From a virus (lineage: Duplodnaviria; Heunggongvirae; Uroviricota; Caudoviricetes): DNA of 30,963 nt. The notes below the pieces were generated by a model. That model made no database searches. It was not told the origin of the DNA and saw only the letters and a program-made list of their open reading frames with translations. Of the stretch, positions 173 to 30,963 are shown piece by piece. Within the stretch, counting starts at the first letter, position 1. Each line of letters opens with the position of its first letter. The stretch covers positions 1 through 30,963 of IMG/VR virus record IMGVR_UViG_2548876954_000010; one strand, written 5' to 3'. The position numbers were made by a program, and so were the translations under genes.

Positions 173-1222
173 TTACGCAACCTCTGCCGCCACGTTGTCG
201 CCAATACACAGTGACAACGGATTCAAGGTGACAGCTTGTTCAAGATGGTCAGGAGCAAAGTGCGCATACTTCATTGTTTCACGAATATTTGCGTGACCGA
301 GTATCTTCTGGAGTACAAGGATATTGCCGCCATTCATCATAAAATGCGCGCCAAAGGTGTGACGTAAAACGTGCGTTTTCTGCCCTTCAGTCAATTCAAT
401 GTTTGTGAGTTTGAGCATCTTCTTAAAGTCCTGATAGCAGGGCTTGAACATTCTTCCCTGACGTTCGGACAACTCGTCATACAGCCATTTAGGAATCGGA
501 ACCGTGCGATTCTTCTTACCTTTGGTTTTGGTGAAAGTCAGCTTGCAGGGGGAAAGTTGGGGACGTGTAAGTCTCTCAGCTTCTCCCCATCGTGCGCCAG
601 TAGCCAGGCACACCTTAACAATCATAGTAAGATTTTCTTTGCCATATTGTTCACAGGCTCGGAACAGCTCCGGGAGCTGAGACAAAGTTAGCCAGGACAT
701 TTCTTTCTCAGCTTCTTTGAATACACGAATCCCGTCCAGTGGATTGGGTAAACTCCATTCACCTAATCGCCGCAGTTCATTGAACACAGCTTCGAGGTAT
801 TGCTGTTCGCGATTGACAGTTATAGGTTTGGCGATCCATTTCGCCGGGTCTTTGTGATAGCCGTTGTCTATTTCGCCACGTAATCGACGGTCACGGTAAT
901 GAGCCCAATCTTTAGCGGTAAGACGAGATGCAATAGGGTCGCCCAACCCGTTACATACAATTTGAAGCTTAGCTAACCGCGACTTACTGGCGACCAACGC
1001 CTGTCCATGTAAATTATGCCAAAGCTGGATAATCTCACTTAAGCGTCGGCGGTCTTCTTTCTTGCCGAGCCACGGCTTATCTTCACTCTCGCTTTTCGTA
1101 AATGCTTCGAATGCCTCGGCCTCACCTTTGGTATTGAATTGCCGACGTATTCGCCGCCCTTCTCGCCCATTAGGATAAAGCTCACATAACCATTTGCCAT
1201 TTTTTTGCTTACTTATAGTCAT
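173..1222 (-). CDS. int: Tyrosine-recombinase integrase (P2/186 type)
   Basis: Minus-strand ORF; translation has the C-terminal catalytic region typical of phage integrases (ATGARWGE, HVLRHTFGAHFMMNGGNILVLQKILGHANIRETMKYAHF). Start chosen at internal MTISKQ (ATG at 1220-1222) with GGTGA RBS just upstream, rather than the ORF-track start at 1270. Position next to the repressor fits P2/186 layout. Confidence 0.9.
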   Translation of the reverse strand: MTISKQKNGKWLCELYPNGREGRRIRRQFNTKGEAEAFEAFTKSESEDKPWLGKKEDRRRLSEIIQLWHNLHGQALVASKSRLAKLQIVCNGLGDPIASRLTAKDWAHYRDRRLRGEIDNGYHKDPAKWIAKPITVNREQQYLEAVFNELRRLGEWSLPNPLDGIRVFKEAEKEMSWLTLSQLPELFRACEQYGKENLTMIVKVCLATGARWGEAERLTRPQLSPCKLTFTKTKGKKNRTVPIPKWLYDELSERQGRMFKPCYQDFKKMLKLTNIELTEGQKTHVLRHTFGAHFMMNGGNILVLQKILGHANIRETMKYAHFAPDHLEQAVTLNPLSLCIGDNVAAEVA

Positions 1223-1244
1223 AATGTCACCGAGGCAACTCTTA

Positions 1245-1583
1245 TCATTCGCAAAGTGCTGTCGCAGCATCCATTACGGGATCCAAAGGAATTTTTACTC
1301 CTTCATAATCCGGGCTATTTTTCCAAACAGTATCAATATCGCTCCCCTCAAGCTTTCCAGACTTTACACCATCAATAGCAAACCCATTTAATGGGTATCG
1401 GTCATCTGTTGCTTTGTCGTACACAAAGGCATATCTACCATTAACACAAGACACCGTAGCTTTTTCAAAAGTTAACGGCCAATCATCACCAAACTTAGCA
1501 CCGTCTAAATCCTGTGTTTTTTCAGCGGCTGATGCACCGAAAGAAAGTGAAAGAAATAAAGCTAAAAAAAGCTTACGTTTCAT
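1245..1583 (-). CDS. Small secreted/periplasmic protein of unknown function (moron between repressor and integrase)
   Basis: Start at MKRKLFLALFLSLSFGASA, a classic signal peptide with AxA cleavage motif, with AAGGGA RBS 4 nt upstream. AT-rich relative to the late genes. P2 itself has no gene between C and int, so this is an insertion in my recollection of the canonical layout. Confidence 0.6.
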   Translation of the reverse strand: MKRKLFLALFLSLSFGASAAEKTQDLDGAKFGDDWPLTFEKATVSCVNGRYAFVYDKATDDRYPLNGFAIDGVKSGKLEGSDIDTVWKNSPDYEGVKIPLDPVMDAATALCE

Positions 1584-2952: not shown

Positions 2953-3462
2953 ATGTTTGATTTTCAGATTTCTAAACATCCTCACTATGACGAAGCGTGC
3001 CGGGCTTTTGCGCAGCGTCACAACATGGCGAAGCTGGCCGAGCGTGCGGGTATGAACGTTCAAACGTTACGTAACAAGCTCAACCCAGAACAGCCTCACC
3101 AATTCACACCGCCTGAATTGTGGCTGCTGACTGACCTGACCGAAGACTCAACCCTCGTTGATGGCTTTCTGGCGCAAATACATTGTCTGCCATGCGTGCC
3201 GGTTAATGAGCTGGCTAAAGAGAAATTGCAGTCTTATGTGATGCGCGCAATGAGTGAACTCGGCGAACTGGCGAGCGGTGCGGTATCAAATGAACGTATG
3301 ACCTCTGACCGCAAACACAGCATGGTTGAGAGTGTTAATGCAGGCATCCGCATGTTGTCTCTGTCGGCGCTGGCGTTACAGGCGCGTCTACAGGCTAACC
3401 CGGCAATGTCGAGCGTGGTTGATACCATGACCGGCATCGGCGCAACATTTGGTTTGGTATGA
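2953..3462 (+). CDS. cII: CII-like lysogeny-establishment regulator (186 CII family)
   Basis: Start at MFDFQISKHPHYDEACRAFAQRHNMAKLAERAGMNVQTLRNKL (ATG 2953, AGAGGG RBS). 169 aa, and the sequence closely matches my recollection of coliphage 186 CII. Second gene of the rightward early operon. Confidence 0.8.
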   Translation: MFDFQISKHPHYDEACRAFAQRHNMAKLAERAGMNVQTLRNKLNPEQPHQFTPPELWLLTDLTEDSTLVDGFLAQIHCLPCVPVNELAKEKLQSYVMRAMSELGELASGAVSNERMTSDRKHSMVESVNAGIRMLSLSALALQARLQANPAMSSVVDTMTGIGATFGLV

Positions 3463-4488: not shown

Positions 4489-6711
4489 TTGGCTGTTCAA
4501 TTCGCTTATCCGTGGAATGCTCCACGATCGGCTATAGCCAGCCCATACCTTACTTATAAGCAACAGCATCGCCGCGACCGTATGTTCGCGGCGATGCTGC
4601 ATGCTAAAAAGGTGCTTTCTCTCCAGCCCGACTGCGTGCGGTTAGATGTTTATCGCACTGCGGCAGTGCTGGAGCAAAATCAGGGCATTCAACGAGCCAA
4701 TGCCTTTTTGATCAGCTTCTGCAAAAAGGCATTGCCGCGTCTTGAATTGGTCGCAAAAAAATACGAATGCGCGGGTATCAACAGCAAGGTATCAACCTCT
4801 GTTTTTGGAAGTCATTTTGATACCCAGCTTATGCAATATCTGGCGTCACGCATGGTTAATATGGTCGCCCGATATAACCGCCTCCCGGATATGTCGCGCG
4901 CTGATGTTGACCTGTTGGCCGCCGATATTGCTAATTTCATTCGTGGTGAACTTGCCAACATTAATGACCACGGATTCGGCGAGCTTAAAACGCTGTACAC
5001 CTGGTATAATCGTGCTGGCTTTATTTCCCTCCAGTTCAACGTTATCCCCCCCCATTGGGATCGGGTTGCAAAAAAATATGTTGGCGCGGATGAAATCGCA
5101 CCGGCTATCGCCAAGATGTTTAACGATGGGTGGTGGCGTGGTCGTTTGCGCCGGGTTGCAGCTACGTGGCGCGAACACCTGCAAATTGCAGTCGGCAACG
5201 TCAGCAAGAAAAAAAACACCTATGCGAGTAAAAACTGCGTGACTGACTGGCGTGAACAAAAGCGCCGAACTCGTGAATTTCTCAAAGGTCTGGATCTCGA
5301 AGACGAAGACGGCAACCGTATCAGCCTGATTGAAAAATATGATGGCTCAGTTGCTAACCCTGCGATTCGCCGCTGTGAGCTCATGACTCGCATTCGTGGG
5401 TTTGAAAACATCTGTAATGAGCTCGGTTATGTCGGTGAGTTTTACACTCTGACCGCGCCGTCGAAATATCACGCCACGACTAAAGCCGGTTACCGTAACA
5501 GCAAATGGAGCGGTGCCAGCCCGGCTGACACGCAAAACTATCTAACTGATATCTGGGCGCGTATCCGTGCCAAACTGCATCGGGAAGATGTCCGTATTTT
5601 CGGTATTCGTGTCGCCGAGCCCCATCACGACGGTACTCCACACTGGCACATGCTGATGTTCATGCTGCCGGAAGATGTTGAATATGTTCGCTCCATCGTC
5701 CGTAAATACGCGTGGAAAGAAGACCGCCGCGAACTGAAAAGCGATAAGGCAAAAAAAGCACGTTTCCACGCCGAGTCCATTGACCCGGAGAAAGGCAGCG
5801 CAACCGGCTATGTTGCTAAATACATATCAAAAAATATCGACGGTTATGCTCTCGATGGTGAAACCGATGATGAAAGCGGTGAACTGCTGAAAGAGACAGC
5901 CCCCGCCGTTTCAGCATGGGCTTCGCGCTGGCACATCCGTCAGTTTCAGTTTATCGGTGGTGCGCCGGTGACGGTTTACCGTGAGTTGCGTCGCCTCGCT
6001 GATACCGAAACCGCGCACGGACTGAGCGTTGAGTTTGCCGCCGTCCATGATGCCGCCGACGCTGGTGACTGGGCTGGTTATGTTAATGCGCAGGGTGGAC
6101 CGTTTGTCCGTCGCGATGATTTACAGGTGCGCACACTGTATGAACCACGTACCGAGCTTAATCAGTACGGTGAGGAAACGGTATGTATTAAGGGGGTCTA
6201 CGATTCCTCCATAGGTGCAGGTAGCCCGATTTTAACCCGGCTCACTCAGTGGAAGATTGTTCCGAAGCATGCTGTTGATTTGGCCGTTGACCTTCAGGAC
6301 GGCAAAGCCGTCCCTCGGAGTTCTGTCAATAACTGTACGGGAAGCGAAAACGCTCCACCGGTACTGGATTTGACAAAGCCCCTGAGTCGACGCGAAAGAC
6401 GAGAGCTAACCAACCGACTCAGGAAGCAAAAATCAGCAATACGGCGAAAGTTCAGCCACGGAACGGATGAGCAAAACGCAGCTATAGCTAAAACTATCGA
6501 CGAGATACAACTGACAACCGGCATTACAATCAGCCGGAGCGAAGCCCTGCACCTGATGGCCGGTGGTAAAAGTTGTTTTGATGGCAAATGGCTACGCGGA
6601 ACGGCCAAAGGGGAAATATTTTCCGCAGCACCATCGCATGAGGCTAAAGCTCGGAAAATCCTTAATCGTGTTGCGGCGATGGCTGAATCATCAAAACCAA
6701 CACATGAGTAA
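4489..6711 (+). CDS. A: Rolling-circle replication initiator endonuclease (P2 gpA family)
   Basis: 740-aa ORF. Contains the HUH-like motif region (EPHHDGTPHWHMLMF) and paired tyrosines in GYVAKYISKNIDGYAL. Codon at 4489 is TTG; the first in-frame ATG is at 4582, so the exact start is uncertain. Confidence 0.9.
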   Translation: MAVQFAYPWNAPRSAIASPYLTYKQQHRRDRMFAAMLHAKKVLSLQPDCVRLDVYRTAAVLEQNQGIQRANAFLISFCKKALPRLELVAKKYECAGINSKVSTSVFGSHFDTQLMQYLASRMVNMVARYNRLPDMSRADVDLLAADIANFIRGELANINDHGFGELKTLYTWYNRAGFISLQFNVIPPHWDRVAKKYVGADEIAPAIAKMFNDGWWRGRLRRVAATWREHLQIAVGNVSKKKNTYASKNCVTDWREQKRRTREFLKGLDLEDEDGNRISLIEKYDGSVANPAIRRCELMTRIRGFENICNELGYVGEFYTLTAPSKYHATTKAGYRNSKWSGASPADTQNYLTDIWARIRAKLHREDVRIFGIRVAEPHHDGTPHWHMLMFMLPEDVEYVRSIVRKYAWKEDRRELKSDKAKKARFHAESIDPEKGSATGYVAKYISKNIDGYALDGETDDESGELLKETAPAVSAWASRWHIRQFQFIGGAPVTVYRELRRLADTETAHGLSVEFAAVHDAADAGDWAGYVNAQGGPFVRRDDLQVRTLYEPRTELNQYGEETVCIKGVYDSSIGAGSPILTRLTQWKIVPKHAVDLAVDLQDGKAVPRSSVNNCTGSENAPPVLDLTKPLSRRERRELTNRLRKQKSAIRRKFSHGTDEQNAAIAKTIDEIQLTTGITISRSEALHLMAGGKSCFDGKWLRGTAKGEIFSAAPSHEAKARKILNRVAAMAESSKPTHE

Positions 6712-6785: not shown

Positions 6786-6805
6786 TACTGTATAAATATA
6801 CAGTA
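6786..6805. promoter_or_regulatory. LexA (SOS) box overlapping a candidate promoter
   Basis: TACTGTATAAATATACAGTA is a near-perfect match to the E. coli LexA consensus (CTGT-N8-ACAG, palindromic). Candidate -35 TTGCCA lies upstream; a GGGAGGGA RBS and ATG at 6825 follow. Confidence 0.75.
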
Positions 6806-6824: not shown

Positions 6825-7007
6825 ATGGTTGGCGAACATTGCAGCCGAACGCAGCAAAAGTGGGCTTGTGTGCAATTTATTGCCGAGGTATCTCTGATTG
6901 CAAACTGCAAGCCATCAGACTTAAAGCTCGCGCTCACTCTCATTGCAGACCTAGCAAACAGCGAAAATAACGAAACCGAAGATGATAATTTTTATAAGGC
7001 TGATTAG
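6825..7007 (+). CDS. LexA-controlled small protein; possibly the N-terminal part of a Tum-type antirepressor
   Basis: 60-aa ORF with a strong RBS (GGGAGGGA, spacing 4) 20 bp downstream of the LexA box. It is followed within 3 bp by a dinI-like reading frame. 186 Tum is an SOS-induced antirepressor whose C-terminal part is DinI-like (recollection). Confidence 0.45.
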   Translation: MVGEHCSRTQQKWACVQFIAEVSLIANCKPSDLKLALTLIADLANSENNETEDDNFYKAD

Positions 7008-7009
7008 AT

Positions 7010-7240
7010 TATGAGAATCAATATCACGTTGGATAAAGAACAAAAAATTAGGGCAACAGATCATTGATGCTTTTCAGAATGAAATAACACATCGAGTACA
7101 ATGCGTTTTCCTGCAACAAAAGTTAACGTTAAGAAAGGGTCAATGACTAGTGTAGAGGCTATCGGATTCGATAAAGAGGCGGACAGAGAAACATTAGGCA
7201 GCATATTACAAGAGATGTGGGAAGACGATAGCTGGCGTTA
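7010..7240 (+). pseudogene. dinI-family gene disrupted by two frameshifts (DinI-like domain of a tum-type locus)
   Basis: Three collinear segments across two frames read MRINITLDKEQKIRATDH* / IDAFQNEITHRVQCVF... / MTSVEAIGFDKEADRETLGSILQEMWEDDSWR*. Together they track E. coli DinI end to end as I recall it (MRIEVT..., ...IDALAGELSRRIQYAF..., ...KEDKQRISEILQETWESADDWF...). Stops fall at 7064-7066 and 7143-7145. Confidence 0.5.
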
Positions 7241-7258
7241 AACATAATAACCGTGCTG

Positions 7259-7312
7259 GCGCAAAAACTAGCTTTTTGCGTCGGCGGGGTTGAGTAACGA
7301 GCCCACGAGGCT
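7259..7312. repeat. Copy A of a composite motif: 8-bp-stem hairpin followed by a conserved ~30-nt box
   Basis: Hairpin CGCAAAAA-ctagc-TTTTTGCG (7260-7280), then tcGGCGGGGTTGAGTAACGAGCCCACGAGGC. A second copy lies at 7664-7718. Confidence 0.5.
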
Positions 7313-7440
7313 TAAGTCCTGCCTTTCAAAATTTCTCAATGTGCTATTGATGACACGCCCATGATTAATGAGGCATGACCTGAGATAGTTTTATAGTGGC
7401 GTTTTGACGGCACTGATTAAAATTCATTGAGGGTGATAAT

Positions 7441-7650
7441 ATGCATCGACTACCAGGTGAAATTCCGCATCACAAAACTAAAAGCATCAAACTGATGGCC
7501 ATCGTTCATCGTCTGCAGCAGATAATGGTCAATGAGAATTTGACACCCACAGAGCTGGTCGGGTGTGCCGAAATAGTCAGGGATAATTACGGCAAGCTGG
7601 ATAGCATCAGCAGGCCGACACAATACGCCCCCCCACCACGTCGACGATAG
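7441..7650 (+). CDS. Hypothetical 69-aa protein
   Basis: ORF with a good RBS (GAGGGTGA) and ATG at 7441. Lies between the two copies of the hairpin-plus-box motif. No recognisable motif. Confidence 0.45.
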   Translation: MHRLPGEIPHHKTKSIKLMAIVHRLQQIMVNENLTPTELVGCAEIVRDNYGKLDSISRPTQYAPPPRRR

Positions 7651-7663
7651 CAAACGTCGTCAA

Positions 7664-7718
7664 GCGCTGAAACTCGCTTTCAGTGCTGACGGGGTTGAAC
7701 AACGAGCCACGCGAGGCG
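7664..7718. repeat. Copy B of the composite hairpin-plus-box motif
   Basis: Hairpin GCGCTGAAA-ctcgc-TTTCAGTGC, then tGACGGGGTTGAACAACGAGCCACGCGAGGC. The stem differs from copy A at paired positions (AA/TT in A versus TG/CA in B), so base-pairing is preserved. Confidence 0.5.
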
Positions 7719-8150
7719 TTAGTTGGTTACCTGATTGACACCGAGCGAAAGCAGGTTTGTCACCGCACCGGCAATAACTCCGGGTGTCCCGTCTTTCACC
7801 GCACTGATAATCTTATCGCCCAGCGTTTCATTACCGCCGAGTGCCTCGGGCTTTTTGTTGAGCACGGCGAGTGCTTTCTCGGTCAGGCGCACATCCCGAA
7901 AATAAGTCTGATTGTCTGTTTCATACTGGATGTAGCCGTTTTCACTGAGAAAAGTGAATGTACCCTCAACCACACTACGCAACTGATTCAGTGCTTTCAT
8001 TTCCGGTGAGTTAAGTTGGTCAAAGTAGTCATCAGGTAGCGCGGCGTTAAATTTTTCGTAGGTGATGACCTGCGGCACCGGGAAGTTATCCCATAACACC
8101 GCAAAAATTTCCGCCGTCTGCTGATTAAATAATTCGAGGTTTTTGGACAT
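7719..8150 (-). CDS. Hypothetical 143-aa protein (orphan gene in the A-to-cos accessory region)
   Basis: Minus-strand ORF with AAGGGA RBS upstream of ATG (8148-8150). Ends immediately beside motif copy B. No motif I can assign. Confidence 0.55.
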   Translation of the reverse strand: MSKNLELFNQQTAEIFAVLWDNFPVPQVITYEKFNAALPDDYFDQLNSPEMKALNQLRSVVEGTFTFLSENGYIQYETDNQTYFRDVRLTEKALAVLNKKPEALGGNETLGDKIISAVKDGTPGVIAGAVTNLLSLGVNQVTN

Positions 8151-8340
8151 GCATAATTCCCTTTCATCGATAGACCCGTTTGCCGATTGGGCAAAAAAGC
8201 TGACCGTAATGGCTTCAAATAACGACCTGAGTTCTCGTGAGGTGGAAAGCTACACCGAAAAAATGGTCGAGCAAGCCAGTAAAGATGAGCTTACGGTCGT
8301 TATCAAACACCTGTTAAACCACATCAGAATGCACAAATAA
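8143..8340 (+). CDS. Hypothetical small protein (65 aa); weak call
   Basis: ORF whose start overlaps head-to-head with the start of the 143-aa minus-strand gene. RBS is poor at 8143. A terminator follows at 8481-8505. May be spurious or start internally. Confidence 0.3.
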   Translation: MDMHNSLSSIDPFADWAKKLTVMASNNDLSSREVESYTEKMVEQASKDELTVVIKHLLNHIRMHK

Positions 8341-8505: not shown

Positions 8506-8662
8506 ATGCCATTTTTCCGCGATTTCCCCGTTTTAGCCGTGCATGCAACAGGTGCATGGTTTTGCATTCGCAGGGGTTGCCCGTTCTGACCGTGCGCCGC
8601 CAGAGCTGGCGCGGATCCCGAGAGTTCATGCAACTGCATTAAAACCGCCCCGTAAAGCGGGC

Positions 8663-8681
8663 AGGCGTGGCGGGGAAAGTA
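8663..8681. other. cos: cos site (cohesive-end sequence) of the P2/186 family
   Basis: ggcgtggcggggaaagtat followed by tgcgcgctg matches my recollection of the P2 left end (GGCGAGGCGGGGAAAGCAC TGCGCGCTG...) and the 186 cos. It sits in a GC-rich hairpin-dense ~250-bp segment between the A-side accessory genes and the portal gene, where the permuted prophage map puts cos. Confidence 0.6.
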
Positions 8682-8796
8682 TTGCGCGCTGGATCATAAA
8701 CGATTGCTTACTTTGAAGAAAATAGTGTGCTTATGAACTGCAAACTTTATACAATCAGAATTTGCCGAATCTCTTTTTTGATGAATAAGGGTTTTT

Positions 8797-9624
8797 ATGA
8801 CTGGTGTTGTGAATTACGATGTGGTTATCAGGAGTGGTGATCAGCCCGTTGATATGGATTATGCGCTGGAAACGTTAGGCGGAGCATCGGAAGTTACCTG
8901 TTTACTAGCAGAAGCAATCCTACAAAAAAAAGTCGTTAAAAGAAGAAGTCCTGCTAATAAAGCGCGAGCAGTTTTACATCAGAGCTTCCCGAGTTCTTAT
9001 GGACAAAACTTTGCGTTAGCTATAGATGACCCAATATTAAAAGCTCGTTTAGTTGAAATAACCAACCCTGTACTTGCGGAAATTATGGGATTTTACATAT
9101 CTGAAGCTATGTATATACAACCTCCGGCTTTATCAGCACGAGCCAGACATTATATTGAAGAGCTTGAATATCTTGAAGATGAAATTATAAGCCGTATTCG
9201 GAATCCTTTAATACGCATGCACAAAATTAATTACCGTCGCAACTGGGATATTGATTTCAATTTTAAACCTGATGGTAGACAAAGAAAAATAGTGACTTTA
9301 AATACTAGGACTGCAGCAAATCTAACTCACACAACGGTTGAAAGGGAAAGATTTAATATAATTGCAATGGTTACAAGATTCAACTCTCGTACAGGTAATG
9401 GCCGTTTAGTGCTACAAGATGAGGACGAGACTGTTGCTTTTGGTTTTGCCAACCAATTAGGAATGGTTCCGTCCGCACAGAAAAGAATGATTTCTTTGAA
9501 TCTACATAATAATAATGGAAGATCCGATAATTACATATATCTTAGTATGACTGTCAGTAGGGTTGTAATTATGAGCGGTGAGACTGTAAAATATGCAGTA
9601 CACTCTGTGCGTGTATTGGAATAA
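8797..9624 (+). CDS. Hypothetical soluble 275-aa protein, first gene of an AT-rich two-gene cargo cassette
   Basis: ORF with AAGGG RBS. Markedly AT-rich compared with the flanking phage backbone. No TM segment or catalytic motif I can recognise. Its stop (9622-9624) is 2 nt from the next start. Confidence 0.7.
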   Translation: MTGVVNYDVVIRSGDQPVDMDYALETLGGASEVTCLLAEAILQKKVVKRRSPANKARAVLHQSFPSSYGQNFALAIDDPILKARLVEITNPVLAEIMGFYISEAMYIQPPALSARARHYIEELEYLEDEIISRIRNPLIRMHKINYRRNWDIDFNFKPDGRQRKIVTLNTRTAANLTHTTVERERFNIIAMVTRFNSRTGNGRLVLQDEDETVAFGFANQLGMVPSAQKRMISLNLHNNNGRSDNYIYLSMTVSRVVIMSGETVKYAVHSVRVLE

Positions 9625-9626
9625 GT

Positions 9627-10376
9627 ATGAATAGAATTAAGTGCATATGTGGGTTGATACTAGCTGCTGCTTGGGCAGCGTACTATCTTCATTTTGGCAT
9701 AGACGGAAGCCTCTCCCAAAAAACTGAAGTTTGGGGACAGTTTGGCGACTACGTAGGTGGGGTGGTCAACCCCATTTTAAGTTTTATAACCATATATCTA
9801 CTTATTAACTCAATAGGGTTACAGCGCGAATCTAATGAAAGCTTAACCAATGAAATAAAAAGACAAGAGAAGCTAGAGGAATATAAAAAATTTGAGCTAC
9901 GATTCTTTCGCTTGATTGAATCGCAGGAGGAAAACTTCAGTCGTTTTAAAATATGTATATCACAACAGGATGATGATGAGCAAAATGTTGATGAACAGTT
10001 AGAAAAAACAGATGAAATATTGAGTGGTGGAGCAGCAGTAACATTCATTGAAGATTGTTTGTTACCCCTCAAAGAGGCTGGAGTTAGCAAGGAGCGTGTA
10101 TTCCATTGGTTAGATAGTTTGGATGATGATGGATCATTTTTTTCATTAGTAAGACGTTTCTATCTCATTCTCAAATTAGTCGATGCCAATACACTTACAA
10201 AAAGCGAGAGAGATGAAATGTATGAAACGTTGATTAATCTTACTGATATTAAAGTAATTAGCATCATTGCAATCTTGAGTTTGCATTATGATTGGTACGC
10301 AATCAAATACATTAAGGCAACAAAAATTCTTGACAAGGAAGGAGTTAGGGAATTCGTTGAAATGTATAAAATTTAA
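9627..10376 (+). CDS. Hypothetical membrane protein (two N-terminal TM helices plus acidic cytoplasmic domain), second gene of the cassette
   Basis: N-terminus has two hydrophobic helices (ICGLILAAAWAAYYLHF and VGGVVNPILSFITIYLLINSIGL). The rest is charged and Asp/Glu-rich. AT-rich, closely spaced after the upstream gene, followed by a terminator. Confidence 0.7.
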   Translation: MNRIKCICGLILAAAWAAYYLHFGIDGSLSQKTEVWGQFGDYVGGVVNPILSFITIYLLINSIGLQRESNESLTNEIKRQEKLEEYKKFELRFFRLIESQEENFSRFKICISQQDDDEQNVDEQLEKTDEILSGGAAVTFIEDCLLPLKEAGVSKERVFHWLDSLDDDGSFFSLVRRFYLILKLVDANTLTKSERDEMYETLINLTDIKVISIIAILSLHYDWYAIKYIKATKILDKEGVREFVEMYKI

Positions 10377-10447: not shown

Positions 10448-11458
10448 TTATCCGATTGTGTAATCTTTAAAGCTTATTACCTTCACCCCCAGCCAGTCAT
10501 TAATTTCTTTGAATCGCTCCTGCAACGGTGTTAACTCGTTGCGAACAAACACCTTTGCTACCCTCTCAACATCCCCGAGCGATGCGATGTTTTCAGGCTT
10601 GCCCCCCATCAACTGGAACGGCACGCGGTGCGCATCGAGCAGGTCAGCGGCGCTCACCTTTTTAATATTGAAAAAGTCATCTTTCGTGGCAACCTCACTC
10701 AGCGGCACAATCTTGATACCATCCGGTTTCCCGTTCGGTGCGTAGAAAAACAGGTTTTTAAAATTCCCGAGTCCCTTTGAATCACGCATCGCAGAACGCA
10801 GTGACTCGACGTCGGTGCTGCTTTGGGCAGCGTCGGTGACGTACATGATGTAACCCGCGTGCGCGCCATTCTGGTAATACTTGCGACGAAACAGGGTGGC
10901 GGATTCATTCAGCCAGGCGGAATTGAGTGCGCTCAGATATTCAGGCATACCGTAAAGCTCCTGATTAATGTCAGGCTCCAGCAGATGAAACACCGAGCCG
11001 GGTGCGAACTGATGTGGGTTGTTAAAGCTCGACACGTACCAGTAAACACCATCCTCAACGCCACGACGGGTATATTTAGCTGGCGATGTTTCCAGTTTTA
11101 AAAGGTGACCGGTAACACTCATGCGCTTCTCAAGATAACCGTTCGCAAAGACCAGATAATCCAGCACGAGGCGGCTGAAATCCTGACGCGACAGCAGCGG
11201 GTGCGGGATGTAGGTGCTCGCCAGAATGTTACGTTTCACGTAAATCGGCGAGCTGTGATGAACGGCGGCGCGCAGGCTTTTTGCCAGACCAGAGAAGTTG
11301 ACCGGCGGCTCGTACCACTTACCGTTATTGATGCACTCGACATAATCGAGGATATCGCGACGATCCAGAACGGCAGAGGGCTCGCCAAAGGTGAACGCCT
11401 CCATTTTTTGCGGTGCGCTAACGGTCGTTGTGGTGGGTATCTTCAGTTGCTTTTTCAT
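10448..11458 (-). CDS. Q: Portal protein (P2 gpQ family)
   Basis: 336-aa minus-strand ORF directly downstream of the terminase ATPase gene. N-terminal region (FTFGEPSAVLDRRDILDYVECINNGKWYEP) matches P2 Q as I recall it. Leftward Q-P pair next to cos as in P2. Confidence 0.9.
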   Translation of the reverse strand: MKKQLKIPTTTTVSAPQKMEAFTFGEPSAVLDRRDILDYVECINNGKWYEPPVNFSGLAKSLRAAVHHSSPIYVKRNILASTYIPHPLLSRQDFSRLVLDYLVFANGYLEKRMSVTGHLLKLETSPAKYTRRGVEDGVYWYVSSFNNPHQFAPGSVFHLLEPDINQELYGMPEYLSALNSAWLNESATLFRRKYYQNGAHAGYIMYVTDAAQSSTDVESLRSAMRDSKGLGNFKNLFFYAPNGKPDGIKIVPLSEVATKDDFFNIKKVSAADLLDAHRVPFQLMGGKPENIASLGDVERVAKVFVRNELTPLQERFKEINDWLGVKVISFKDYTIG

Positions 11459-11459
11459 G

Positions 11460-13229
11460 TCAGTTAATATCCAGAATTGTCGTTGAATGCATGCCGCTAC
11501 CGGCGGAAAGAGGTTCGTTTAACAGGGCGTGCATGGTCGCCCATGCGATATCGGCGTGACTGGCTTCCTCGGTACGGCTGGCCTCGTAGGTGGCGCTGCG
11601 CCCGCTGCTGGTCATGGTTTTGCGAATCGACATAAACGACTGCGTGACGTCGGTTGCTCCGGCGTCGTACTCCAGACAGCCACGGCGAATGGTGTCTTTC
11701 GCCTTGAGTACCATTGCAGTTTTCATTTCAGGTGTGTAACGGATGCCGCGTGCCGCCGGGTAAAATGAGCGCACCAGCTGGAACACGCCGAGACCGAGGC
11801 CGGTTGCGTCAATGCCGATGTATTCGACGTTGTATTTCTCGGTCAGCTTGCGGATGCCCTCTGCCTGTGCTGCAAAATCCATGCCCTTCCACTGGTGGCG
11901 CTCCAGCATGCGGAACTTGCCACCAGAGACCACCGGCGGCGCGAGCACGACGCACCCGGCACTGTCGCCGGTGTGTGACGGGTCGTAGCCAATCCAGACA
12001 GGACGAGAGCCGAACGGATGGTCGGCGAACGGGGCAAAGTCCTCCCATTCCTCCATCACATCGACCATGCAGCGCTGCAGCTCCTCGAACGGGAATACCG
12101 ACGCTTTATCGTCGACAAACTCGCACATAAACAGGTTCTTAAAGTCCTCATCACTGTTTTCGCGTTTGAGCTGGTCGAGGTCGAACAGGGTGCAGCCACC
12201 CGCAAGGGCGTCCTCAATGGTGACAATCTGCCGCCACTGGCCATCGTCGCAGAGCTGGCCACCGGCGAGCGCGCTGTGACTGATGTCGATTTCGATGCGG
12301 TCGGCAATCCGGCTGCGCCCCTTGTTGAACAGCTCGCCAGACCAGAAGGGGTAAGCGCCGTGCGCCAGCGTGGAAGGTGTCGAAAAATAGGTCGAGCGCA
12401 GGTGCTTTTGCGAGGCCATGCCCGAGGCGACTTTGCGCAGTTTCTGAAAATTCGGGATCCAGAATATTTCATCGACATACAGATCGCCGTTATGGCTCTG
12501 CGCGGTGTTGGAATTGGTACCGAGAAAAATCAGTTTTGCGCCGTTGTTACCGATGACAATCGGGTCGCCAGTCAGGTCAACGTCGACCAGTCGCGCAAAC
12601 TGGATGATGTATTCGCGGAACACGTAAGCCTGCGTTTTACTGGCTGATAAAAATATCTGGTTATGGCCGGTTTTGAGTGCGCGCAGCAGTGCCTCGCGGG
12701 AGAAATAGAATGTCGCGCCAATCTGGCGGGATTTGAGAATGTCACGAATACGGTGCTCCAGTCCTGCGCGGTACCACTGCAACTGGTACTCGAAAGACTG
12801 GTCGAAAAATAATTCCTCTAGTTTATCGATAGCCTCGTCGCTGAAAAAATTCTTTTTCGGCTTTTTGCGCTCCCCTTTGTTGCGGTTGGCGACGTTGGGG
12901 TTAAGGTCGGCTTCGTTGCCGGTCTGGCTGTAGCGGTTGACTCGCGCCAACCGTTCAATCTGCCGTCCGAGCAGGTCAATCTCTTTGAAATCACCCCCTG
13001 TCTTTTGCGGCTTGGCGATGAGCTGAATCAGCCTGGCCTCAAGGCTGCTTTCAACGCGGGAAATCGGCGCGATGCCGTCCCAGCCGTCGCGCTGCTTCCA
13101 GCTCTGCACGGTCGGGCGCTTGACCTGCAGCATTTCGGCAATCTGTGGCACGGAAAACCCCTGCCAGTAAAGCAGCGATGCCTGGCGTCGCGGGTCATGC
13201 AACAAGGTTGTATCGGTGGAAATGGTCAT
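11460..13229 (-). CDS. P: Terminase large (ATPase) subunit (P2 gpP family)
   Basis: 589-aa minus-strand ORF. Size, position and divergent arrangement against the scaffold/capsid operon match P2 gpP. Confidence 0.9.
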   Translation of the reverse strand: MTISTDTTLLHDPRRQASLLYWQGFSVPQIAEMLQVKRPTVQSWKQRDGWDGIAPISRVESSLEARLIQLIAKPQKTGGDFKEIDLLGRQIERLARVNRYSQTGNEADLNPNVANRNKGERKKPKKNFFSDEAIDKLEELFFDQSFEYQLQWYRAGLEHRIRDILKSRQIGATFYFSREALLRALKTGHNQIFLSASKTQAYVFREYIIQFARLVDVDLTGDPIVIGNNGAKLIFLGTNSNTAQSHNGDLYVDEIFWIPNFQKLRKVASGMASQKHLRSTYFSTPSTLAHGAYPFWSGELFNKGRSRIADRIEIDISHSALAGGQLCDDGQWRQIVTIEDALAGGCTLFDLDQLKRENSDEDFKNLFMCEFVDDKASVFPFEELQRCMVDVMEEWEDFAPFADHPFGSRPVWIGYDPSHTGDSAGCVVLAPPVVSGGKFRMLERHQWKGMDFAAQAEGIRKLTEKYNVEYIGIDATGLGLGVFQLVRSFYPAARGIRYTPEMKTAMVLKAKDTIRRGCLEYDAGATDVTQSFMSIRKTMTSSGRSATYEASRTEEASHADIAWATMHALLNEPLSAGSGMHSTTILDIN

Positions 13230-29797: not shown

Positions 29798-30963
29798 TTA
29801 CGGGCATGACCATTGACGCCGGTACCAGCCTTGCACCGGCATTTATGCTGACGCTGAACAGCCAGGACATTACCAGTAATTTTAGTGACCGACTGATTTC
29901 TCTCACCATGACAGACAACCGGGGCTTTGAGGCTGACCAGCTTGACATTGAGCTCGACGATACCGACGGCAAAGTCGAGTTACCTCTGCGCGGGGCGGTG
30001 CTGACGCTGTGGCTTGGCTGGCAGGGTTCGGCGCTTCTGAATAAGGGAGATTTCACGGTCGATGAGATTGAGCACCGGGGCGCGCCTGATACCCTGACCA
30101 TCCGGGCGCGTAGTGCAGATTTTCGGGGAACACTCAATTCACGGCGTGAAGAGTCATGGCATGACACCACCCTCGGTGAGCTGGTCAGCACCATTGCAAA
30201 GCGCAATAAACTGACGGCCAGTGTCGCGGATTCACTGAAAAAAATACCGGTACCGCATATCGACCAGTCGCAGGAGTCCGACGCCGTATTTCTGACCCGG
30301 TTGGCTGACCGCAATGGGGCGGCGGTGTCAGTGAAGGCGGGTAAGCTCCTGTTTCTGAAAGCCGGTAGTGCAATGACCGCCAGCGGCAAGCCCGTCCCAC
30401 AAATGACGCTGACCCGCAGCGATGGCGACCGTCATCAGTTTGCCATTGCTGACCGTGGGGCTTACACCGGCGTAACAGCAAAATGGTTGCATACTAAAGA
30501 CCCGAAGCTGCAAAAGCAGAAAGTAACACTGAAACGTAAGCCAAAAGAGAAGCACCTGCGCGCACTGGAGCACCCGAAAGCAAAGCCGGTTAGCAAAAAG
30601 ACAAAGGCCAAAAAAGAGCCGGAGGCGCGCGAGGGTGAGTATATGGCCGGTGAGGCCGATAACGTGCTGGCGCTGACGACTGTCTACGCTTCTAAGGCGC
30701 AGGCGATGCGCGCCGCTCAGGCTAAGTGGGATAAGCTACAGCGAGGCGTTGCGGAGTTTTCAATTACGCTGGCGCTTGGTAGGGCTGATTTATTCCCTGA
30801 GATACCGGTGCGTGTGTCAGGCTTTAAGCGCGTCATAGACGAGCAGTCTTGGTTAATCAGTAAGGTAACTCACAATCTGAATAATAATGGATTCACGACG
30901 GGCTTAGAGCTTGAGGTTAAGCTCTCCGATGTGGAGTACAGCTCAGAGGAAAGTGAAAACTGA
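29794..30963 (+). CDS. D: Tail protein D (late control D protein)
   Basis: 389-aa ORF overlapping the U stop. Its TGA is the last codon of the window. Last gene of the P2-like tail operon; ogr and attR would lie beyond the window. Confidence 0.85.
   Translation: MITGMTIDAGTSLAPAFMLTLNSQDITSNFSDRLISLTMTDNRGFEADQLDIELDDTDGKVELPLRGAVLTLWLGWQGSALLNKGDFTVDEIEHRGAPDTLTIRARSADFRGTLNSRREESWHDTTLGELVSTIAKRNKLTASVADSLKKIPVPHIDQSQESDAVFLTRLADRNGAAVSVKAGKLLFLKAGSAMTASGKPVPQMTLTRSDGDRHQFAIADRGAYTGVTAKWLHTKDPKLQKQKVTLKRKPKEKHLRALEHPKAKPVSKKTKAKKEPEAREGEYMAGEADNVLALTTVYASKAQAMRAAQAKWDKLQRGVAEFSITLALGRADLFPEIPVRVSGFKRVIDEQSWLISKVTHNLNNNGFTTGLELEVKLSDVEYSSEESEN

Follow-up and report, generated by a model that had tools for sequence, protein, structure and literature searches.

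In the early mRNA of phage T7, with its RNase III hairpins, and in the sib retroregulator of phage lambda, a hairpin left at the 3' end determines how stable the preceding message is. Conserved stem-loops of another kind, the promoter-early stem-loops (PeSLs), are known from T4-type phages (Arbiol et al. 2010, PMC2839356; Comeau et al. 2014, PMC4122927). In P2-like phages, the interval between gpA and gpQ is a defence hotspot for which 1,650 gene arrangements were counted in Escherichia coli (Rousset et al. 2022, PMC9122126), and few reservoirs of anti-phage defence systems have been studied as thoroughly (Rousset et al. 2022, PMC9122126; NAR 2026, PMC13586616). Cassette swapping at this hotspot has been described as recombination in general terms only, and searching the main texts of these two papers (PMC9122126, PMC13586616) by term returned no hairpin, stem-loop, terminator or sequence motif of the locus. 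Here, an element is described that occurs twice within the gpA-to-gpQ (gpA-to-portal) interval of a stretch of DNA of 30,963 nucleotides (nt), the IMG/VR virus record IMGVR_UViG_2548876954_000010 (hereafter the window), which is a prophage and a 186/PSP3-like member of the P2 family (Peduoviridae). The element is a module of about 70 nt, consisting of a 19-bp hairpin (H1), the near-invariant linker GGTTGAACAAC, a 5-bp mini-hairpin (H2) and the tail GCGTTAG.

Like PeSLs, the element is a short conserved regulatory stem-loop motif situated between non-essential genes of a hyperplastic region, and like them it is an exchange point between unrelated sequences (here 33 left by 51 right flank families, with breakpoints at the second copy). 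The open reading frame (ORF) of 69 amino acids (aa) that lies between the two copies also follows the PeSL pattern. PeSLs, however, combine a strong sigma-70 promoter with an effective terminator and are present many times per genome, whereas the element has neither a promoter nor a U-tract, occurs in one or two copies at one locus, includes a long invariant box that is not a promoter, and in some lineages bears a ribosome-binding site instead of a promoter. With the T7 hairpins and lambda sib it shares a helix of roughly 20 bp between cistrons or past a stop codon, with a downstream ribosome-binding site near. It differs from the T7 sites, which have a typical internal loop, in the single G.G mismatch of H1 and in that its cleavage is only proposed; neither the T7 sites nor lambda sib have a counterpart of the invariant linker and tail.

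Searches of the literature by sequence string and by keyword found no description of the element, although an earlier notice of the junctions is possible, as the title of Nilsson et al. 2004 (Mol Biol Evol 21:1) invokes site-specific recombination there. The element thus appears to be undescribed so far and to belong among the conserved stem-loop boundary elements of phage variable regions. The explanation favoured here, to which a probability of roughly 45% is given, is that it represents a cis-acting + strand RNA that ends the SOS or early operon, acting in processing, stabilisation and insulation, and serves only secondarily as an anchor for cassette swaps.

Structure and covariation

Both copies lie on the + strand as a direct repeat (7259-7303 and 7664-7708, spacing 405 nt) with the shared architecture recognised in a first-pass annotation made from the sequence alone, and the 18-nt box GGGGTTGARYAACGAGCC has exactly two occurrences in the window, where 0.03 would be expected by chance. 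The two sites had been located correctly, but the element reaches slightly further in each case and the box hides H2. The stem, which had been put at 8-9 bp, is a 19-bp helix with one G.G mismatch in either copy (Table 1). Two positions at which the stems differ in step are real compensated changes (A-T to T-A and A-T to G-C). Copy A, of a diverged type, is matched by a covariance model of the family at 7246-7316 (60.1 bits, E 5e-14), and the scan of the window with this model returned no third copy beyond A and the consensus-type copy B. Stretches of 75-76 nt around the copies fold as + strand RNA with energies of -32.6 (copy A) and -28.4 kcal/mol (copy B; z -4.1 and -2.6), compared to -19.9 and -21.7 kcal/mol for RNA of the complementary strand. 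With DNA parameters the ordering of the strands is unchanged and the folds are much weaker (-18.8 kcal/mol as DNA vs -32.6 as RNA).

Table 1 Features of the window and sub-features of the two element copies.
Feature	Position	Strand	Remarks
Phage-type integrase (Int)	173-1270		only recombinase/integrase in the window
Replication gene A	4489-6711	+	
ori nick sequence	6310-6333		inside gene A; ~0.9-1.4 kb upstream of the element copies
LexA box TACTGTATAAATATACAGTA	6786-6805	+	perfect; p95-like SOS promoter; equivalent LexA site and p95 annotated in phage 186
tum (tumA-like) antirepressor ORF	6825-7007	+	matches PSP3 tumA and 613R3 'UV induction of prophage'
dinI-like gene	7011-7241	+	disrupted by +1/-1 homopolymer indels; stop codon 7239-7241, 6 nt before copy A
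Element copy A	7248-7316	+	diverged type, after dinI-like frame; nhmmer 58 bits
H1 of copy A	7249-7291	+	19 bp; loop CTAGC (7268-7272); G.G mismatch near base
H2 of copy A	7298-7309	+	CGAG-CCCA-CGAG
Tail of copy A	7310-7316	+	GCTTAAG
69-aa ORF (phrog_11386)	7441-7650	+	unknown function; stop codon 7648-7650; enclosed by the two copies
Element copy B	7650-7722	+	consensus type, after 69-aa ORF; covariance model 82.5 bits, E 7.6e-20
H1 of copy B	7653-7696	+	19 bp with one G.G mismatch; loop CTCGC (7673-7677)
Near-invariant stretch GGTTGAACAAC of copy B	7693-7703	+	unpaired part GAACAA at 7697-7702
H2 of copy B	7703-7715	+	CGAGC-CAC-GCGAG; tandem G.A; 3' strand contains GAGG
Tail of copy B	7716-7722	+	invariant GCGTTAG; its TTA (7719-7721) is the stop codon of the 143-aa gene
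143-aa convergent gene (phrog_2266)	7719-8150	-	first variable cassette right of the element
Portal and terminase genes	10448-13229	-	

Consensus, covariation and covariance model were derived from an alignment of 95 sequences that differ from each other at three or more positions. The consensus reads (A)AAC-GCCGCCGGTGCTGAAA-CTYGY-TTTCAGTGCTGGCGGGG-TT for H1, GAACAA for the linker, CGAGC-NNN-GCGAG for H2 and GCGTTAG for the tail. Double-sided, compensatory changes are found at 18 of the 24 pairs, and 15 of these belong to the 19 pairs of H1. Cells changed on both sides number 153, compared to 37.5 +/- 4.7 in shuffled alignments, and none of 500 shuffles reached the observed value in any of five measures; paired cells make up 85%, against about 40% (34-46%) in slid controls. 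The selection on structure that had been proposed from the two copies therefore holds well beyond them. H1 is almost free to vary in sequence and yet always pairs, as in AACGTTGCAGGCGATAAAA...TTTTTACCGCCTGCAACGTT of Klebsiella and Pantoea phages, while H2, in most cases closed around a tandem G.A, takes the form CTCGC/GCGAG, CCCGC/GCGGG or CTTGC/GTGAG elsewhere. At three positions of H1 the commonest pair is G.U, and A.C is rare. Because of these G.U pairs the fold is specific to the + strand, with mean RNA folding energies of -31.9 kcal/mol for the + strand and -22.5 kcal/mol for the complement, the + strand being the more stable one in 113 of 121 sequences.

Conservation of the unpaired parts was also followed in 80 loci that were fetched through DinI and not through the box. 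In this sample, conservation amounts to 0.9-1.0 from AAC to TTAG and drops to 0.3-0.6 directly outside; the stretch GGTTGAACAAC reaches 0.96-1.0. The invariance of linker and tail is therefore not a matter of ascertainment alone, as it is seen in loci chosen independently of the box. GGTTGAACAAC is likewise unchanged where gpA is only 35% identical to that of the window, in loci that were found with a pattern containing GGTTGAACAAC.

Three other interpretations of the fold were discarded. A closing helix of 5' AACGCC with 3' GGCGTT, as in a three-way junction or an attC-like site, is not supported by covariation. The alternative H2 proposed by RNAalifold (GCC/GGC) was dropped in favour of CGAGC/GCGAG, as column 66 varies without a partner and the changes GA to TC and GA to CC are compensated. 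A Chi-like GCTGGCGG in the 3' strand of H1 was set aside, since that strand varies freely, with compensation, in other lineages.

Distribution

The element is conserved in other P2/186-like prophages, for which the first-pass annotation had suggested a search. Scanning with the exact pattern located the box in 73 contigs of IMG/VR, and BLAST found the element in 74 phage records, among them 186, PSP3, Wphi, P2-EC58, SW9/SI22, SEN1, Midge, FSL SP-004, EtG and several Klebsiella and Yersinia phages. Complete genomes of E. coli contain it at 604 places in 531 of 5426 genomes (median 1, maximum 3). P2-like portal genes are present at 3149 places in 2446 E. coli genomes, so that about one in five P2-like loci (~19%) has the element. 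A looser pattern extended the range to 38 species of Enterobacterales, including Citrobacter, Enterobacter, Pantoea, Erwinia, Serratia, Tatumella, Mixta, Kluyvera and Leclercia. A phage marker gene was present in the fetched stretch at 37 of these 38 loci, the element lying downstream of gpA, tum or dinI or upstream of Q and P; at all 37 it points in the direction of gene A, including loci whose gpA shares only ~35% identity with that of the window. In P2 itself, the element is absent between gene A and cos.

Each prophage carries one or two copies, always at one locus, which speaks against the remnants of a small dispersed repeat family that had been considered earlier. A dispersed repeat of the host (REP/BIME, ERIC) was likewise rejected given the 531 of 5426 genomes, the median of one place and the P2-like prophage context in all cases examined. 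Matches on plasmids turned out to be P2-like prophages within plasmids, and occurrence on true plasmids or outside phages was rejected. No Rfam 15 family matched the window at gathering score, and the permissive limit of E<=10 gave no match for 7150-7800 either; annotation of the element itself is absent from all matches listed. Taken together, the element is a candidate new RNA family for annotation, apparently specific to P2/186-like (Peduoviridae) phages.

Position in the transcript and relation to terminators

In nearly all cases, no more than about 10 nt separate the start of the element from a preceding + strand stop codon, which belongs to DinI (77-78 aa), an orf97-like gene (~243-270 codons) or a member of the 69-aa family. 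That both copies of the window directly follow a stop codon and that copy B coincides with the 3' end of the 143-aa gene had been noted earlier, and both observations stand. In the record of phage 186 the order is p95 with its LexA site, tum, the partial terminator t95a, orf97, the element (30341-30414) and t95b (30436-30463). The feature annotated as 't95b; p95 transcript terminator' begins 22 nt downstream of the element, and the location between the orf97 stop codon and t95b places the element inside the SOS transcript, upstream of the terminator. In the window, the p95-like promoter at the LexA box should correspondingly drive transcription through tum, dinI and the element. High expression of tum is known for BTP5 in the lysogen S. 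Typhimurium D23580 (PMC7067206).

The element has the operon and a similar position in common with t95a and t95b, and many relatives without it have an ordinary terminator there; the end of t95a (...GGGGTTGTTTT) also resembles that of H1 (...GGGGTTGAACAAC). Unlike these terminators, it lacks a T-run and in 186 is located ahead of t95b within the transcript. Use as a terminator, one of the functions initially suggested, is thus not borne out: H1 has no U-tract and is followed by GAACAACGAG in both copies, which, with t95b further downstream in 186, led to the rejection of a classical intrinsic terminator. A terminator scan scored only an unrelated sub-stem, and both copies of the window, like many others, have no terminator behind them. 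Among the 80 DinI-anchored loci, ~27 have the element 8-12 nt past the DinI match, ~30 show the 186 arrangement and ~23 have no element; in many of the latter, dinI is followed by a terminator-like hairpin of the ordinary kind, with a T-run.

Among the right flanks, the two commonest families have a strong intrinsic terminator 21-24 nt past the element, followed by cos. Convergent genes make up another group of right flanks; their stop codon coincides with the TTA of the element or is found 2-7 nt further on. In further ones, + strand ORFs begin with an ATG at +2/+3 past TTAG, so that the GAGG of H2 precedes the start codon by 9-10 nt. This arrangement is shared by three unrelated ORF families, namely phrog_2100 (85 aa), an ORF with a weakly HumD/UmuD'-like N-terminus and a 219-aa ORF, and the spacing suggests that the GAGG of H2 sometimes supplies the Shine-Dalgarno sequence for downstream ORFs in several lineages. 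In two loci (L106, 7206-7526, and L116) the ORF 2 nt past the element begins MGFPSPAQDYVE and resembles the processed N-terminus of UmuD'/HumD; this likeness is weak (NCBIfam E 2e-6, under the curated cut-off). At other loci (L074, L023, L049, L053) a LexA-box palindrome (e.g. TACTGTATGTGCATACAGT), a T-run and a strong ribosome-binding site follow ~25 nt past the element, and this palindrome may be both a terminator and an SOS operator for the next cassette. A promoter in the box was rejected, as no promoter-like site is present in or beside either copy and TTGAAC, followed after 17-18 nt by TTAGNN, has on inspection a poor -10. A secondary nick site of the A protein, as in the P2 ori (..CCTCGGAGTYCTGTCAATAAC), was also rejected, the shared sequence with the ori of the window being CCTCG on the opposite strand.

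Exchange of flanking genes

Megablast alignments of the window to other phages break at copy B (7653, 7663 and 7722). The 33 families of left flanks and the 51 families of right flanks are reassorted around the element: the DinI-type left flank is paired with 14 right flanks, the terminator/cos right flank with 7 left flanks, and the junction of the 143-aa gene with the element recurs behind 6 different left flanks. Copy A is joined to a single DinI allele, that of the window, at every occurrence, and stems similar to that of copy A, with ordinary box and tail, follow DinI that is 72-75% identical to that of the window. The stem therefore tends to travel with the left gene while the box remains constant, which points to an exchange in or after the box.

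Two copies are found only where the phrog_11386 69-aa ORF intervenes, as in the window, PSP3, SW9/SI22, 613R3 and others. A single element is present in P2-type phages, behind a 69-aa-like ORF, and in 186-type phages, behind dinI or orf97. Together with copy B, the 69-aa ORF forms a unit of 405 bp, and the two copies of the window would be the product of a cassette swap that enclosed this unit. At four loci (L018, L024, L048, L051), 9-20 nt of the 3' end of the 143-aa gene (CTGGTTACCAGATTGACACC) are located between the element and a terminator or another cassette. These remnants are the footprint of an earlier cassette loss and indicate that ordinary deletions also happen. Cassettes with retron-type reverse transcriptases adjoin the element as well (L005 / L166, L081, L087). 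In a Klebsiella phage the cassette precedes the element and is on the + strand; in P2-EC58 and a prophage borne on an IncC plasmid it follows the element and is on the minus strand.

A proposed cis-acting RNA and competing explanations

As a cis-acting RNA, the element would be transcribed as the last part of the LexA-controlled tum-dinI (p95) operon, and in P2-type phages it would close the early operon instead. H1, 1-10 nt past the stop codon, would set the 3' end of the message ahead of it and shield this end, either as a barrier to 3' exonucleases or as a processing site for a double-strand-specific enzyme of the RNase III type, and would insulate this message from the downstream cassette. 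The length (19 bp) and position of H1 are compatible with putative RNase III processing. The segment made up of linker, H2 and tail would serve for recognition and for the initiation of translation, and the whole module would uncouple the tightly controlled tum-dinI message from the cassette that follows. The analysis establishes the family, its fold, strand and position, its transcription in 186 and the reassortment of its flanks, and the activity at the RNA level, through RNases and effects on translation, is inferred. An RNA is preferred over the protein-binding site that had been listed as another option because of the strand asymmetry caused by G.U pairs and the place in a mapped transcript. 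As the element alone is conserved between the core genes and the hypervariable gpA-Q hotspot, it offers a left-hand homology anchor for cassette swaps. This role would be a by-product, as with T4 PeSLs (PMC2839356, PMC4122927).

Several observations weigh against this explanation. H1 without a U-tract makes no standard terminator, and the invariance of linker and tail across phages with 35%-identical gpA calls for a sequence-specific partner that the model does not name. In the family of FSL SP-004, L033 and L089, a Fic gene on the opposite strand lies upstream and the element is intact, although it is probably transcribed mainly in antisense there. Any role must be accessory given that P2 has no copy, and ~80% of P2-like loci in E. 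coli are without the element. Finally, a fold specific to the + strand suits single-stranded DNA equally well.

Alternatively, the element could be a structure-specific recombination site that is active as folded single-stranded + strand DNA, like attC or the dif mimic of CTX phage, where a conserved host recombinase or the HUH protein A of the phage cuts at the edge of the element and joins cassettes. The element resembles integron attC sites in size (57-141 nt for attC), in conserving structure over sequence, in its strand-specific fold and in its location behind the stop codons of cassettes, and also in its short conserved ends with AAC ... GTT, after which unrelated DNA starts directly. 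Fifty-one unrelated right flanks begin at the identical nucleotide past TTAG, with some gene ends or starts 2-7 nt off, the stem keeps its structure and not its sequence while the end motifs AAC ... GTTAG are invariant, and the 69-aa ORF with copy B looks like a cassette flanked by two sites. A conserved host partner would also suit the invariance over very divergent phages. In attC, however, the terminal inverse cores RYYYAAC and GTTRRRY pair with each other in the folded strand. In the element, the 5' AAC has its pairing and covarying partner in the internal GTT of H1 instead of the terminal GTTAG, and the tail GCGTTAG stays constant irrespective of the sequence at the 5' end. The element also departs from the GTTRRRY core, since GTTAG can be followed by any base, and a box of 30 nt is preserved in sequence. 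There are never more than two copies per locus, no arrays and no IntI, and no dedicated recombinase is linked, the sole integrase of the window being an ordinary phage Int. The likeness to the nick site of the A protein is confined to CCTCG, the cassette remnants described above indicate illegitimate or homologous events, and selection for a compact genome can explain the tight junctions. A recombination site is therefore judged unlikely. The more specific proposal of a genuine cassette-capture site, in which single-stranded DNA arising in rolling-circle replication or recombination folds and is cut at the TTAG edge by a conserved host enzyme or the HUH protein A, is held to be slightly less probable. 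If it were true, P2-like phages would acquire and exchange defence genes in an integron-like, structure-specific manner that goes beyond homologous recombination between core genes.

A trans-acting small RNA (sRNA) derived from the 3' untranslated region is another explanation with a low probability. H1, linker and H2, possibly with t95b, would be released from the SOS transcript, and would target a conserved mRNA or sRNA of the host, with the linker GGUUGAACAACGAG as the seed. Where the arrangement is of the 186 type, the final ~125 nt of the p95 transcript indeed contain the element followed by a terminator hairpin with a U-tail, the unpaired segment is better conserved than its surroundings, as is typical of a seed, and a conserved host target would account for its invariance across hosts. 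Yet no complementary site in the phage genome rises above background (best -19.8 kcal/mol, compared to -18.8 to -26.2 kcal/mol for shuffled seeds), many copies, including both in the window, have no terminator behind them, no Rfam family matches, and a search of the literature with the linker sequence found nothing.

It is improbable that the element acts as a single-strand initiation signal for lagging-strand synthesis, whose hairpins would recruit primosome or primase on the strand presumed to be displaced by rolling-circle replication from the ori in gene A. Known single-strand priming signals are similar in size to the two hairpins of the element, ~70 nt, and the strand-specific fold, the constant orientation with gene A, the location shortly downstream of ori and the intact state of the element where local transcription is probably antisense would all be in agreement with such a function. 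P2, however, replicates well without the element, ~80% of P2-like loci in E. coli lack it, and the three G.U(T) consensus pairs of the stem are far weaker in DNA (-18.8 vs -32.6 kcal/mol in RNA). The strict placement at stop and start codons would be left unexplained. That the element is functionless, a decayed terminator or duplicated intergenic remnant hitch-hiking with dinI or orf97, is very improbable and largely refuted by the covariation: it takes the slot that holds an ordinary terminator in other relatives and is absent from P2, but the compensatory changes, the sharp island of conservation and the invariance at 35% gpA identity are incompatible with neutral decay.

Gene setting in the window

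Compared to the intact 76-aa DinI of vB_EcoM-613R3, the dinI-like gene ahead of copy A has one additional nucleotide in an A-run (~7040-7046) and lacks one in a T-run (~7102-7106), so that ~60 nt are out of frame and a TGA arises at 7062-7064. The disrupted frame would be either a pseudogene or the result of homopolymer sequencing errors. To the right of copy B, the 143-aa ORF (minus strand) and a 65-aa ORF (plus strand, phrog_2454, unknown function) overlap head to head at 7719-8340. This pair adjoins the element jointly in several backbones (Midge, FSL SP-004, a Klebsiella phage, Citrobacter, Scandinavium). Neither Pfam nor PADLOC gave an informative match for the flanking ORFs (69, 143, 65, 85 and 243 aa), and the PHROG families matched are all of unknown function. 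A terminator-like hairpin with a T-run (CCGAGTGCCTCGG GCTTTTTGTT) is present on the + strand at 7837-7859, antisense within the 143-aa gene, and could stop read-through from the SOS operon.

Further downstream, two ORFs of 275 and 249 aa, both of unknown function, are located at 8797-10376 behind a cos-like region (8540-8720). The 249-aa ORF has a weak ZorB/MotB-like PADLOC match (E 3e-4). Located between cos and the portal gene, the two ORFs appear to represent a second slot for accessory genes across cos.

Implications for P2/186-like phages

The element marks the exact left border of a defence locus, at which dozens of partners are joined at one nucleotide. It provides a testable handle on the insulation and expression of accessory genes behind an SOS or early operon, and on the sites at which these genes are exchanged. 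In this way, it may help to explain the exchange of accessory (defence) genes in P2/186-like prophages.

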